Shown piece after piece: positions 36,603 to 47,441 of a stretch of DNA of 64,000 nucleotides (positions are counted from its first letter, which is position 1; the number at the start of each line of letters is the position of its first letter). The translations under genes and the position numbers were made by a program. The notes beneath the pieces are model-generated. The model was not told the DNA's origin. It did no database searches and saw only the letters and a list, made by a program, of their open reading frames with translations. Source of the stretch: a phage. The DNA is taken from sequence record PX246731.1; one strand, 5' to 3'.

Positions 36603-36637
36603 AATAAAAGCCCCTCTAATGAAGGGCTTTTTCATTT
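36603..36637. terminator. bidirectional terminator between convergent transcription units
   Basis: AAAGCCC...GGGCTTT stem flanked by A-tract on one side and T-tract on the other; directly after the vRNAP stop. Confidence 0.6.
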
Positions 36638-45600: not shown

Positions 45601-47441
45601 AAGCTATCCATAGACATGATGTTGTCATACATCTGGATTGCAGCTTCCATTTGAACGTTAGGGTCTTCGGCAGTATTAACCAAGTCAGCCATCTTCTGAA
45701 TAGCTTCAACACGGTTAGTGGAACCAGAAACAGCTTCACGGATTGCCGGGCTAGCCTGTTCCAGTTCTACTGGGTCAAACTTCATTACCTGAGTTAAGTC
45801 AGCAGCATACTGTGTAGCAGCAGCTTTCTCTTCAGGAGAAATGTCCATTGCATCTACTGCTTCCTGAACAGTTGCCTGTGCCTGTTCTGCCTGAGCAGTA
45901 GCTTCTTGTGCAGCAGCGTTAACCGTAGCATCAGATACAGGGGATGCTTGCTCATTACGCTTAGCAACTTCTTCACCACGCTGAACCAGGATGTTAGTAA
46001 TAGGTGAAGCTACTTTCGCTAATGCTTTACCAGCCAGAGAAGCACCAGCCAGGGTAGTACGTACAGCAGGACCTACGGCAGCACCAGCAGCCTTAACAGT
46101 TGCACCAGGAGCTTGAGCAACTCCAGCACTACCGAAGCCATACAGTGCACCAAGCCCGGTTTGTTCACCCACACCTTTAAGCAAATCACGATTAGCATCT
46201 ACATTACCTTGAATTGCTTTGTTCTGTGCAAACTGACTTGTACCAGACTGGATACCTTCTTCTACAGTCTCACGCAGCATGTTAGAACCAGCTCCAGCCA
46301 GTGAACCTACCTTAAGTGGGTTAAGTTCAAACTTGGATACCAGTGGAGCAGTAAGAGCAGCAACTGGAGCAGTTAAGCCAGCAGCAGTGATACCTGTTTC
46401 AGATGCAGTCTGACGACGTGCTTCTTCAGGAGACAGACCATCTTTAATATGCTGTTGGTATACAGGAGATTTAGCAGCCAGTTCACTGAACGGCATTTCC
46501 ATAATTTCATTAGCAGTCTGCTGGTATGCACCACCAGCTTCCATACCACCAATTGCTATAGCAGGTGCAGCAACACGACCAGTAGCTAATGCAGTACGTG
46601 CAGGACGCGAACCTAATTCAGCAGCTAGGGTAATACCCTTAACAGCTTTATCACCACCTACCATTACTTTACCAAGTGCAGATACACCACGGATAAGTGG
46701 ACCACCAGTAAACAATGAACCAACACCCTCAGCCAGACCATCTGTAGCAGCCATGCCATTAGATAAGGTGTTAGCAACAGAATCATAAGCATCACGACCA
46801 ATTCGAGATAGGGAAGCAACGAGTTCACTTTCTCCTTTATCAATATCTTGCTTATAGAGTTTCTCATTCTCCTGAGCAGATATTACGTTCTGGTTCTGTA
46901 CTACATTACGGCGAGCATTCAGTGCATCAGACTGTAGGTTGTGTACACCTTTATTTAACCAGTCAAGACCGGAAGCAGTGGATGCCCCGGCATTATCATT
47001 GACCAAACCTGTGCCAAGAGCAGCAATGCCCCCAAGGGTATTAGCAACACCAAGACCAACACCAGAAAGGGTATCACCAAGTGCTTCACCATATGTACGA
47101 CTCTTAGTTAAATCACGACGAACAGCATTAGCTGCATTGACACGAGCATTGAGAATGTCCATTCCTTGCTCATTGCCATACTTGTTTATGATTTCAAGAG
47201 GAGAGGCATTAGTAAAATCTGCCTGAATAGAACCTGGGTTAAATGCACCAGCACCTAAGTTACCAGCACGGCCTGCCTGTAATTGGTAGGCGTTCTGTGG
47301 GGTTAATTGGAAAGGGTTTTGCCCTTGTTCAGCTTGTTTCCGAGAGGTTGCAGTAGAGACATCGACTTGCTTAGCAGTAGTGATGCTGTCTGCGAAACCT
47401 GCCAGACGGTCAAATGTTGACATAGCATGATTCCTGTTCAA
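36636..47441 (-). CDS. virion-encapsidated RNA polymerase (vRNAP, N4 gp50-like), 3601 aa
   Basis: Single uninterrupted 10.8-kb ORF, the size class of N4 gp50; sits with RNAP II genes and hairpin promoters. Confidence 0.85.
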   Translation of the reverse strand: MNRNHAMSTFDRLAGFADSITTAKQVDVSTATSRKQAEQGQNPFQLTPQNAYQLQAGRAGNLGAGAFNPGSIQADFTNASPLEIINKYGNEQGMDILNARVNAANAVRRDLTKSRTYGEALGDTLSGVGLGVANTLGGIAALGTGLVNDNAGASTASGLDWLNKGVHNLQSDALNARRNVVQNQNVISAQENEKLYKQDIDKGESELVASLSRIGRDAYDSVANTLSNGMAATDGLAEGVGSLFTGGPLIRGVSALGKVMVGGDKAVKGITLAAELGSRPARTALATGRVAAPAIAIGGMEAGGAYQQTANEIMEMPFSELAAKSPVYQQHIKDGLSPEEARRQTASETGITAAGLTAPVAALTAPLVSKFELNPLKVGSLAGAGSNMLRETVEEGIQSGTSQFAQNKAIQGNVDANRDLLKGVGEQTGLGALYGFGSAGVAQAPGATVKAAGAAVGPAVRTTLAGASLAGKALAKVASPITNILVQRGEEVAKRNEQASPVSDATVNAAAQEATAQAEQAQATVQEAVDAMDISPEEKAAATQYAADLTQVMKFDPVELEQASPAIREAVSGSTNRVEAIQKMADLVNTAEDPNVQMEAAIQMYDNIMSMDSFINRDPGALANLEQGSPAANIVDQFSGLMANVQNTPKVLRAFRAIHSMIQEQAEAGKLKATEKANQAQANNIAMAADMSPEVLDADSVNMVLKHASEGKITLGNRQRAALQSAAALLQGAREFDAKAEELGLRPQDIVSKQIKTDESRSNEGQYSALQHAKRIRSAYNSGNFDLASAYLDDFMKFAQHMQNKVGALNEHLISGNADKNKSVHYQALTPSREWVRSRTGLGVNPYDTKSVKFAQQVGLEAKTVADIANALATAYPELNVSHVKVTPLDSRLDKPAAQVVKEFRQGNLDAAQSQQTNEPVNQVDEAPVIKQEPVTPTVQTKPSVSEAVKTEPTIKESKPQTVKEPENQSEKQDIVEQPTESERDSYVKENTISQDTLNKYGDRRDSPWLFADGTVVGSNGDHISLSDVFGHDGYRDMSLDTGAVRSTFYKGSEQPFVSLQLFDNQKLTAEQFNTVQSFVEANNALIQIGVDTSGLNTNNVEKEEVSLAQLKADYTVGGKPLSGMEAVFPVYNNEKTPNQFLKAFSLPEEPKSRTIGSESPLTDVKKALSSAARFEAFTQKENNALTSDVIKRYQDLFEFGETLKTTLSDRLAKFLANKNVGKRFAEGTEANRWVGGKLLNIVEKDGDTFKFNDQLLETAVLAGLQWRLTATQNAAIKDMQDVAAITGVNASLLPEGILAEFENAQTLVEATNSLAQKIESYWGLNRNADAPLGYTKGIPMAMATEILSSLIEMGEVKESMLDVSEIDPESNKTIGLYTIEKLDDTDAINKFPTAIEEAVLVEPVEKLYFGDDIPPVAHTQLRNPAVRNTPEQKAALKAEQATEFFVHTPMVQFYEALGKDRILELMGAGTLDKDLLNKNHAKSLEGKNRSVEDSYNQLFSVIEQVRAQSEDISSVPIHYAYNMTRVGRMQMLGKYNPQSAKLVREAILPTKATLDLSNQNNEDFSGFQLGLAQALGIKVHKMTRETMSEELTKALEGKLKPAVDMMVEFDKSGYLPTDAVNILTTSLGNDKSFVALMALMEYARYLNSDDRANFNTPLYVEADGVTNGPINAMVLMTGGKFTPNWIKNTAKGGLFFGKAGKTMNEHHTQEDSVDLYEASTNSLQFYLNELRNAYSKNIPVINQMDHLQKLMDLFIKDFNLNEDGTLDLKRGIAKNPLTITIYGSGARGIAGKMVSAITDTIYERLSDVLKARAVDPNISPAMAMFGKEAASEADAQAMLDTFLTSMKALTGNIPAKRKGKLFIKEVDGVLTGKLDPQEFTVSGDALKNLQENMLHFFVEPMRQGIRFTVGDGLMQSTENLQKATQIQSLVLQDMFQQAVQAKLAEKEKDPTWKKGDFLTQKELNEIQNSLAPLAPMIETGSQTFYIAGSENTDVANQVLATNLDDRMRVPMSIYAPSQAGVAGIPFMTIGTGDGMMMQTLSTMKGAPKNTLKIFDGMNIGINDITDASRKANEAVYTSWQGNPIKNVYESFSKFVKNVDLNKLSDSAIDAIAKSALDFEQRTHIARVDGDRDYKISMIKDSGIALIERNLRNIALGVDIRHKVMDQVQVTVDQMAAVGAPYVNNGKISLEGLTVDQQVAKLNELFDAELNKRRDAVRAAKAEPVKEVPAMEQVGRVLKSGVRLLSNTAITKLAKEMSPEQQEVLKEIQKSLAAKDYKVVYGTPSQLDAYAIEKNITRPAPEDIEAAEAGNAYGWTNFEDKTIYLVTPSLETLVHELVHASTFESVLAHYEGTPNEAVQNIEDLMNQFRALDVNDESPAVREAYADALNTINGHLSNGFIEPAMAKAAALNEYMAWGLTNRELISKQKKTTALKTMVQAVYEAIKRLVFGRKKAPANADDMFSGLLFNSAVVMRGQAPTAAVAKDTTLFHNKAYGDNTRLEELGKTFDKLITNYIGSEPVQQVIRKGKFSDAVVNATKVTRDVQAHGFTMNMQEQRLFTNIVAALATEAAINPAAMARAQEYYTHVTKNLTVEAFMADPDSTNPADRYYAQQKFDTIMGANNIEFDAQGRSSLLPTFVGLAMVSEEVRKVLADIPVMKADKKSGNTVDAMLTNIGTAAMASLNARVAGDTKATNVQEGMDALAQTIMQTSLNAESFYDSVATPTGNAIDRANQYLVDSIDVLSTRALEGAREVAANTKNPLVKGAAHAAQLVAAIATEKNGSIVAEGVMAAMNQGKVWQPFHDLVNDIIGRTKSNASVYDLIKAVRAQVQADRQQFREHLPTTIAAKFSRKLTNDEWKAMHTGMGKTDLAVLRDTMSLDEIRDLLTDQKIVDREVNKLEADLQKQAGRNWPLINRKSKQLAQYMINGTVGNNLLRNATAISRLLGERKTTRSVVDVAQLDKLITLYALEAMNKIDREMLSSLAQTEIEGMDFATSYLVGQRKDEMAKAKSDSRATLNQYKGYIPGETKQGVNLIVAEDSQFADLIEKSYVRLGTYQGSSANRGSARSYYFAPVQAQAPFSQGILQNVRNTAGGVDLGTGFTMGTMVAGRITDKPSVDRITKALARGERGNEPLLPVYDANGNVVAYEQSIDPNMLKHIEGENHLARAIGVWRGRQVEEAKAQRFNDMLIENLHSMYENDIKMSASNKSQYVNLLGSKLDPVTADALKLMNSETRQKAESLFGPGELWVRRDMLNDALGYRAASVGDAWSGNSRWSPETLDTFKKAMLGVFGNRAYKYVMGGENLVQNLVKEAKTLIVVKSVVVPAVNFLANLYQMVARGVPVKNIAKSIPQKTAEINQYLKSRLRQVDAEAELRAATNPNQIRKLKAEIQSISDSHKRLSIWPLLEAGEFSSIADAGIGRDDILITEGKLHEYMDKLADKLPKSVRNAGRYALITKDTALFQGIQKTVEYSDFIAKAIIYDELTQRKGKTREEALGRVTEEFINYDRLPGRFRGYMESVGLMWFYNFKIRSAKVAVSMIRNNPVHAAMAMLAPTPTMFGNVGLPIQDNIFSIAAQGNLGYSFGFGQGLRAHTLNPWLNLTN

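Follow-up and report, generated by a model that had tools for sequence, protein, structure and literature searches.

Introduction

The closest thoroughly described counterpart of the gene considered here is gp50 of phage N4 (YP_950528.1; PDB 2po4, 3q0a, 9pnq, 11gp), a giant virion RNA polymerase (vRNAP); our subject is its orthologue in a 64,000-nucleotide stretch of phage DNA, sequence record PX246731.1, the whole of which we call the window. The 2026 cryo-electron microscopy (cryo-EM) papers on N4, PMC13434306 among them, place linker 1 at residues 907-1006, the polymerase domain (Pol) at 1007-2101 and linker 2 at 2102-2123, leaving an N-terminal domain (NTD) and a C-terminal domain (CTD) on either side. 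Linker 1 is invisible by cryo-EM and has been proposed to hold Pol and the CTD to the membrane-embedded NTD, which is itself proposed to be the membrane-inserting, ejection-related domain (PMC13434306). An HExxH zincin-like domain is always fused to N4-like RNA polymerases and has been placed at aa 2130-2448 of the N4 CTD (Iyer et al. 2017, PMC5512222), while the lack of cysteine is a noted property of vRNAPs (PMC2784036). N4-type vRNAPs have also been counted as polyvalent proteins, and some of them carry ART, lysozyme or PBECR domains (PMC5512222).

Judged by its sequence, the gene in the window is an intact, full-length N4 gp50 orthologue and codes for the usual giant RNA polymerase that N4-like coliphages inject. 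A preliminary description of the window had recognised a single giant vRNAP homologue at 36636-47441, about 100 residues longer than that of N4, and had suggested that the extra length reflects insertions in the N- or C-terminal domains involved in ejection or capsid anchoring. Our analysis places it elsewhere: the ~95 surplus residues come almost entirely from one ~126-aa block at the C-terminal end of linker 1, abutting Pol, which we term module-1. Our overall reading, which we hold with good confidence, is that the product of the open reading frame (ORF) is the RNA polymerase carried in the virions of a Gamaleyavirus (G7C/St11Ph5-like), with module-1 as a probably captured accessory domain.

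Results

The surplus length of the vRNAP lies in linker 1

In a four-way MAFFT alignment, the window vRNAP is 99% identical in amino acid sequence to that of St11Ph5, 89% to that of G7C and 68% to that of N4. Aligning it with N4 gp50 in order to locate indels, as the preliminary description had proposed, finds one block of ~124-126 aa before the Pol domain. This sole large indel relative to N4 comprises 114+10 residues (991-1104 and 1107-1116 of the window protein); the remaining indels are each ≤10 aa and net negative, and none exceeds 5 aa within the NTD or CTD. The inserted unit spans residues 987-1112 by hidden Markov model (HMM) and 991-1116 by alignment gaps, and the polymerase domain starts at 1117. 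The coding sequence and its parts are as follows.

36636-47423, minus strand: vRNAP coding sequence (gp50 orthologue), 3595 aa plus stop; the listed ORF is 18 nt longer, to a TTG at 47441 that is probably unused
44721-47423, minus strand: NTD, residues 1-901 (N4 1-906), 61% identical to N4; 901 aa against 906 aa in N4
44466-44720, minus strand: low-complexity part of linker 1, residues 902-986, rich in Glu/Gln/Val/Thr/Pro
44088-44465, minus strand: module-1, residues 987-1112, an inserted domain, predicted to be globular alpha/beta, absent from N4; linker 1 in total is 205 aa against 100 aa in N4 (aligned interval)
40785-44075, minus strand: polymerase (mini-vRNAP) domain, residues 1117-2213, with Pfam PF21867, PF21624, PF21894 and PF21769; 1097 aa against 1095 aa in N4
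40743-40784, minus strand: linker 2, residues 2214-2227; 14 aa against 22 aa in N4
36639-40742, minus strand: CTD, residues 2228-3595, 70% identical to N4, with HELVH inside; 1368 aa against 1377 aa in N4

Both the NTD and the CTD are slightly shorter than in N4, and therefore the surplus is in neither. That insertions inside one of these domains should alter ejection or capsid anchoring was a natural first thought for a vRNAP longer than N4 gp50, the NTD and CTD being its least characterised parts, but the domain lengths and the lack of any sizeable indel in either refute it, and we consider this explanation very improbable. What survives of the suggestion is that the protein is longer through inserted sequence; the location is linker 1.

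Next in size among the differences from N4 comes a 9-aa insertion, RVDGDRDYK, at residues 2121-2129 (window 41037-41063), near the C-terminal end of Pol at N4 position ~2018; it is common to G7C and St11Ph5.

The exact size of the surplus depends on the start codon. The uninterrupted ORF occupies 36636-47441 on the minus strand and has 3601 codons if counted from the TTG. An in-frame ATG lies six codons inside it, at 47423-47421, with AGGA 5' of it at an 8-nt spacer, and the N-terminus that begins there, MSTFDRLAGFADS, aligns residue for residue with the N4 gp50 N-terminus, MSVFDRLAGFADS, from residue 1. The annotated coding sequence of St11Ph5 gp50, 10,788 nt long, begins at this ATG too. Because the spacing to the ribosome-binding site, the match to the N4 N-terminus and the annotation of St11Ph5 agree, the real start is almost certainly the ATG at 47423, and on the same grounds we reject a TTG start at 47441. 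The protein is therefore 3595 aa rather than the 3601 aa first reported, and at +95 relative to N4 gp50 (3500 aa) the described excess of about 100 residues holds.

The ORF encodes an intact N4-type vRNAP

Four vRNAP-specific Pfam domains, covering the plug, the helical domain, vRNAP_dom and vRNAP_dom_2, match the protein with E values of 2e-25 to 7e-100, far over their gathering thresholds. A phmmer search of the PDB sequences matched full-length N4 vRNAP chains (11gp, 9pnq, 9pnr) and the mini-vRNAP crystal structures, the matches to N4 vRNAP chains being collinear over query residues 1-990 and 1129-3594. The identification as one giant vRNAP homologue is thus confirmed.

The catalytic residues are R424, D559, K670, Y678 and D951 in mini-vRNAP numbering (Kazmierczak 2002 as cited in PMC2784036), which we converted to full-length numbering with an offset of +997, validated on N4 itself. 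All are kept in the window vRNAP, as R1523 (T/DxxGR), D1658 (motif A), K1769 and Y1777 (motif B) and D2050 (motif C), so the central mini-vRNAP domain does have the conserved catalytic motifs for which a check had been suggested. Also conserved are R1765 (motif B) and W1228, the Trp that stacks on -11G. The 11-residue contexts are identical to N4 for six of the seven residues checked, that of R1765 differing at two flanking positions. In the CTD, HELVH (an HExxH sequence) at residues 2329-2333, window 40425-40439, is invariant at the level of the motif in the window phage, St11Ph5, N4 and G7C, and the whole 3595-aa protein, module-1 included, has 0 cysteines.

Compared as DNA along its whole length, the gene shares 96.7% identity with that of Escherichia phage St11Ph5 (Schitoviridae, Enquatrovirinae, Gamaleyavirus); with about 30 further G7C-like coliphages and Shigella phages the identity is 88-95%. 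The extra length is typical of Gamaleyavirus, not peculiar to the window phage: most gene spans are 10.7-10.9 kb, and the G7C protein is longer, at 3748 aa.

Annotation of this gene varies in GenBank, where the orthologue is misannotated as 'DNA polymerase' in HK2, PD205 and U1G and as 'gram positive anchor domain protein' in ECBP1 (JX415535). In Shigella phage pSb-1 it is entered as three separate features, probably through frameshift errors.

An ORF of such unusual length, with some database relatives annotated in pieces (pSb-1 being the case in point), might be an artefact, and a fusion or misassembly was the outcome that the preliminary description itself had wished to see excluded. The alignment excludes it, along with read-through: there is no internal stop, the protein and N4 gp50 align collinearly from end to end, and 29 independent phage records show this architecture. 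The related idea that the ORF is genuine but has an intein or some other selfish element as its inserted block meets with similar objections. By inspection of its sequence, module-1 has neither a C-terminal His-Asn followed by Ser/Thr/Cys nor any Cys, and there was no Hint-like fold match; moreover, the block sits in unrelated host proteins between low-complexity linkers and is under strong purifying selection (see below). To an artefactual ORF or a selfish block we attach practically no probability.

Module-1 is predicted to be a compact, strongly conserved domain

Hydrophobic residues make up 37% of module-1, a globular-like composition, against 23% of the Glu/Gln/Val/Thr/Pro-rich linker upstream. 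A single-sequence AlphaFold2 model of residues 953-1142 was unusable, with a predicted local distance difference test score (pLDDT) of 47, and we used an alignment-based model instead. With an 18-sequence family alignment, AlphaFold2 predicts module-1 as a compact alpha/beta unit with a pLDDT of 90.6 and a predicted template modelling score (pTM) of 0.83, and the BFVD model of the copy in pSb-1, obtained independently, superposes on it at TM 0.89.

Among family members 23-63% identical to one another, eight columns are invariant (S1001, P1002, L1004, G1008, D1016, H1017, R1040 and Q1066) and a further four, D997, W1003, D1007 and G1037, are nearly so. Comparing the window phage with G7C, the ratio of non-synonymous to synonymous substitution rates (dN/dS) is 0.043 in module-1 (dN 0.038, dS 0.89), the lowest in the vRNAP, against 0.10 in the CTD, 0.15 in Pol, 0.17 in the NTD and 0.26 in the adjacent low-complexity linker; the module-1 value comes from one informative pair and 116 codons, and the contrast is nonetheless large. 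The low-complexity linker, 65% identical to G7C in amino acid sequence, is the fastest-evolving part of the protein. Our conclusion from the predicted structures and the substitution pattern is that module-1 is a real folded domain, to all appearances under very strong purifying selection.

Scanning every family member against Pfam, NCBIfam and PHROG models matched no family, and an HMM-profile search of the PDB sequences with the module-1 family found nothing. The predicted fold matched no solved structure convincingly, nor did it resemble a recognised catalytic fold. All members of the family are acidic (isoelectric point, pI, 4.3-6.05), and 17 of the 18 lack Cys; because of this uniform acidity we judge nucleic-acid binding by module-1 to be unlikely.

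Module-1 is rare among phage genomes and recurs in giant polyvalent proteins

A tblastn search of 50,697 phage genomes found module-1 in only 29 records, all of them Escherichia or Shigella Gamaleyaviruses, and in all 29 it lies inside gp50, at 92-100% identity. Two divergent queries from the module-1 family returned the same 29 records and nothing more, and in IMG/VR the domain was found only in additional Gamaleyavirus-like contigs. The module-1 HMM was negative on the vRNAPs of N4 and Shigella phage B2.

Searched exhaustively with HMMER, a set of 1.84 billion representative proteins yielded 21 matches to module-1, of which 19 are genuine; we refer to them by the labels P0001 onwards. The two others, P0020 and P0021, were discarded as repeat-protein false positives, each matching in many weak stretches. 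P0001 is a Gamaleyavirus vRNAP fragment. In a word-indexed protein search, module-1 alone retrieved none and the family profile only P0010, the index evidently missing giant proteins.

The giant hosts of module-1 are 1169-3675 aa long, and those that are not vRNAPs carry it at many unrelated positions. Where Pfam matches exist, the companion domains are SLT, SNF2/ResIII, methyltransferase, ddrB-ParB, InPase and LPD22/38/39, distributed as follows.

P0003: 3675 aa; SLT, ResIII/Helicase_C/Strawberry-notch, methyltransferase, LPD39
P0004: 3253 aa; methyltransferase, ddrB-ParB, LPD39
P0005: 1551 aa; LPD38
P0016: 2655 aa; LPD38
P0006: 2190 aa; LPD22
P0009: 1482 aa; SLT
P0014: 2097 aa; InPase

Companion domains of these kinds are hallmarks of polyvalent proteins. 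InPase, DdrB-ParB, LPD38, lysozyme and N4 polymerase domains are exclusive to phage-type polyvalent proteins, which are predicted to be packaged in the head and injected (Iyer et al. 2017, PMC5512222). The P0004 gene is the last of an adaptor/tail operon on a ~43-kb phage contig, beside P22-type antirepressor and Arc genes, and the P0003 gene follows tail-fibre-assembly genes and precedes a lysis cassette and integrase. When the P0003 and P0004 genes were sought in complete E. coli genomes there was no match, and a pattern scan of species-representative bacterial genomes for module-1 carriers found no relatives.

P0010 is a stand-alone, 166-aa module-1 beside a ParB gene in a phage-like replication neighbourhood, and may be a useful handle on the domain in isolation. 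Its gene (contig positions 7294-7794) has a start that overlaps the upstream stop, and adjoins a ParB_N/HTH_ParB gene and a Prok_Ub/E2/JAB/ThiF cluster.

Finally, P0013/P0022 (3597 and 3601 aa) is another vRNAP, whose gene lies on an N4-type contig of 74.7 kb; it is collinear with the window protein at an identity of only 24-29%. Its module-1 occupies the corresponding site, and in all three vRNAP carriers examined the module directly precedes the polymerase domain.

By homology, then, module-1 defines an uncurated domain family shared with giant polyvalent proteins, which in the two cases examined in context (P0003 and P0004) are encoded last or late in a phage late operon. It may coincide with an LPD1-LPD40 domain of Iyer et al. 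2017 that Pfam may lack.

Linker 1 has probably taken up modules more than once

The window module-1, 60-66% identical to the P0002-P0004 copies, nests with these in a neighbour-joining tree, whereas the vRNAP-borne copy of P0013 is 33-37% identical to it and falls outside the P0002-P0004 clade. Because the window copy nests with non-vRNAP copies, and because its spread among deposited phages is restricted, we favour a history in which the Gamaleyavirus lineage would have captured module-1 from the polyvalent-protein pool, independently of the P0013 lineage. GC content at third codon positions (GC3), 0.22-0.25 in module-1 and linker against 0.36-0.37 in Pol and CTD, is weakly consistent with a separate history.

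A second case of insertion is provided by G7C, whose 3748-aa gp50 has, in addition to module-1, a second block of ~136-148 aa (G7C 965-1100) a few residues upstream in linker 1. This module-2 was found in only one other phage, Shigella phage B2 (OM858838; Humphriesvirinae, Ithacavirus), at residues 960-1083 of gp30, a 3741-aa vRNAP, with low-complexity flanks. The two copies are 74% identical while the whole vRNAPs are ~25% identical, and because of this disparity we see clear evidence, at the level of sequence, that module-2 moved horizontally into the same linker across two schitovirus subfamilies. Its sole library match is a weak one to a PHROG family, 'HTH DNA binding protein' (helix-turn-helix), at E 0.005.

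A further feature of the interval between NTD and Pol is found in P0022 (ENA ERZ4740470 NODE_6, gene 10001-20806), which has an HELDH (HExxH) region at residues ~1040-1200, upstream of module-1. The region has no Pfam match and may be an extra zincin-like domain.

An alternative history is that the fusion of module-1 to the polymerase is ancestral to schitovirus vRNAPs and was lost in N4 and most other lineages. Two points count in its favour and against capture: P0013/P0022, so distant from the window protein, nevertheless has module-1 at the equivalent site and with the same spacing to Pol, and our tree is short and without support values, for which reason we keep an ancient fusion with many losses in consideration. 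Set against it, the occurrence in only 29 Gamaleyavirus records among the genomes searched would need many independent losses, and the Gamaleyavirus copy is closer to non-vRNAP copies than to the other vRNAP copy. Module-2 also shows that linker 1 takes up domains horizontally, and the GC3 of module-1 and linker lies below that of the domains downstream. On balance we regard an ancestral fusion as rather improbable, and capture by the Gamaleyavirus lineage as the better account.

Gene neighbourhood and hairpin promoters

The genes for the ejection partners and plug (47527-52597, minus strand) lie directly upstream of the vRNAP gene on the same strand, in the synteny gp53-gp52-gp51-gp50, and a terminator follows, making the vRNAP gene the last of the late operon.

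49943-52597, minus strand: gp53 homologue, 55% identical to the N4 protein, full length
49486-49929, minus strand: gp52 homologue, 58% identical to the N4 protein, full length
47527-49473, minus strand: gp51 homologue, 45% identical to the N4 protein, full length
36606-36631, minus strand: intrinsic terminator, 11-bp stem and T-run, 5 nt past the vRNAP stop; the same site is annotated in G7C

Between the gp51 stop (47527) and the vRNAP ATG (47423) there is a GC-rich hairpin at 47491-47510 on the minus strand, AAAGCCCC-ATCC-GGGGCTTT followed by TCTCTT. It resembles a partial terminator or attenuator, and narrowly missed the T-run criterion of our scan. A sigma-70 promoter scan around the vRNAP gene gave fewer matches than shuffled sequence, and we claim nothing from it.

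At the other end of the window, four sites have the form of vRNAP promoter hairpins.

91-105, minus strand: vRNAP-type promoter hairpin, ACATGC-GGA-GCATGT, with GCGGAGC at 95-101
927-941, minus strand: vRNAP-type promoter hairpin, AGAAGC-GGA-GCTTCT, with GCGGAGC at 931-937
1188-1202, minus strand: vRNAP-type promoter hairpin, AGATGC-GGA-GCATCT, with GCGGAGC at 1192-1198
5163-5177, minus strand: vRNAP-type promoter hairpin, AGCTGC-GGA-GCAGCT, with GCGGAGC at 5167-5173; just upstream of an ORF at 5211-6029, plus strand

GCGGAGC occurs four times in the window, each time on the minus strand, which is the template for the rightward early genes. Each hairpin has a CCAwwA element upstream, a 6-bp stem, a GGA loop and the invariant GC-GGA-GC core, while the three central stem pairs covary among the four (CAT/ATG, GAA/TTC, GAT/ATC and GCT/AGC). 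N4 has three early promoters; the window has four such sites. Mini-vRNAP binds a GCGGAGC mini-hairpin with a GGA loop (PMC13037366, citing Davydova 2007), and the four window sites match this as the predicted cognate promoter type of the vRNAP.

Discussion

By homology with N4 gp50, we expect the window vRNAP to be packaged in the capsid and ejected after gp52 and gp51 (PMC13434306, PMC13492108). As in N4, the NTD would anchor it in the inner membrane and the protein would refold in the cytoplasm, where the central T7-like Pol domain would transcribe early genes from the four single-stranded GCGGAGC hairpin promoters, with the CTD probably autoinhibiting the polymerase. Module-1 would be accessory cargo, brought into the host cytoplasm together with the polymerase; fused to the N-terminus of Pol at the end of the tether, it would be held beside the enzyme and the entering DNA. 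As to what it does there, we favour a role in early infection through protein or ligand binding or a small enzymatic activity over that of an inert spacer, because of its invariant Ser, Asp-His, Arg and Gln, its acidity and the strong constraint upon it. Host take-over, counter-defence and modulation of early transcription are candidate settings.

The main rival to a binding or enzymatic role is a purely structural one, in which module-1, with neither ligand nor catalysis, is a bead that lengthens or stiffens the tether, or a fast-folding ratchet or folding nucleus at the ejection channel. Several observations speak for this and weigh against the role that we favour. The linker that houses the domain is, in N4, nothing more than a low-complexity tether of ~100 aa; the 2026 N4 cryo-EM studies model the vRNAP as beads on a string passing through a ~22-30 A channel; and module-1 is small, Cys-free like the rest of the protein, devoid of a recognised catalytic fold and placed directly before Pol in all three carriers. 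For a spacer or ratchet, however, there would be no need to keep eight positions invariant at 23-63% identity, with Asp-His, Arg, Gln and Ser among them, or to have the lowest dN/dS in the protein. Module-1 is also found at unrelated positions in non-vRNAP proteins and as a stand-alone protein, and N4 and most schitoviruses work without it. We therefore think a structural bead unlikely, if still deserving of attention, and retain the binding or enzymatic role. Should the modules prove structural, they would bear on how a 3,600-residue protein is threaded through that channel and refolds.

A broader and more tentative proposal, which we regard as possible rather than probable, is that linker 1 is a cargo slot, a disordered tether that tolerates the in-frame capture of small, globular, Cys-free domains. 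Module-1 would then be an unrecognised enzymatic or host-factor-binding effector (for instance in host take-over or counter-defence) that passes between vRNAPs and the giant polyvalent proteins which unrelated podoviruses eject, and module-2 of G7C and B2 and the HExxH linker region of P0022 would be further examples. If this is so, new effectors would be delivered to the host cytoplasm at the site of DNA entry, coupled to the first enzyme on the incoming genome, and the vRNAP linker, natural and genetically tractable, would lend itself to the study or engineering of proteins delivered at the onset of infection.

Comparison with known systems

The nearest known gene is St11Ph5 gp50 (YP_010659910.1; Gamaleyavirus St11ph5), likewise of 3595 aa, with the same start, a 100% identical module-1 and the same gp51-gp53 flanks; it differs from the window vRNAP by a few dozen substitutions. 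Around the gene, St11Ph5 has a tRNA-Ala(CGC) (34352-34423; confirmed by ARAGORN) that is precisely absent at window ~35174, where the flanks, 96-97% identical, abut; ARAGORN found no tRNA in the whole 64-kb window. St11Ph5 also has a 97-aa hypothetical ORF (PP767_gp87) just past the vRNAP terminator that is missing at window 36600-36642, both of its flanks mapping onto the same terminator region of the window.

G7C (vB_EcoP_G7C) gp50 (YP_004782180.1), of the same genus, carries a 92% identical module-1 at the same junction, but has in addition the second linker-1 module that the window vRNAP lacks. N4 gp50 shares the NTD-Pol-CTD layout, the catalytic residues, the CTD HExxH, the lack of Cys, the gene neighbourhood and the GCGGAGC hairpin promoter type; it differs in having no module-1 by HMM, a plain linker 1 of ~100 aa, a 22-aa linker 2, and none of the 9 aa of residues 2121-2129. 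Polyvalent proteins (Iyer, Burroughs, Anand, de Souza and Aravind 2017, PMC5512222) resemble the window vRNAP in being giant, predicted to be injected and composed of unrelated domains; no Pfam LPD model matched module-1.

The gene itself, as St11Ph5 gp50, is thus already known and a routine schitovirus hallmark, as is the membership of vRNAPs among polyvalent proteins. The text of Iyer et al. 2017 (PMC5512222) does not contain 'G7C' and mentions neither module-1 in G7C-like vRNAPs nor the linker-1 position, and a paper on the G7C group (bioRxiv 10.1101/542787) reports introns or insertions for genes 16 and 39 but none for gene 50. In the literature that we searched, three points were not described: that G7C-like vRNAPs owe their surplus length to a single discrete folded domain where linker 1 meets Pol, that module-1 is an uncurated family shared with phage polyvalent proteins, and that modules are exchanged horizontally in linker 1. 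We regard module-1 and the cargo-slot behaviour of the linker as a modest new observation. Compared with N4, it suggests that length differences among giant vRNAPs are not diffuse, and are instead due to discrete folded modules in the very region that the 2026 N4 cryo-EM studies call a featureless, unresolved tether.

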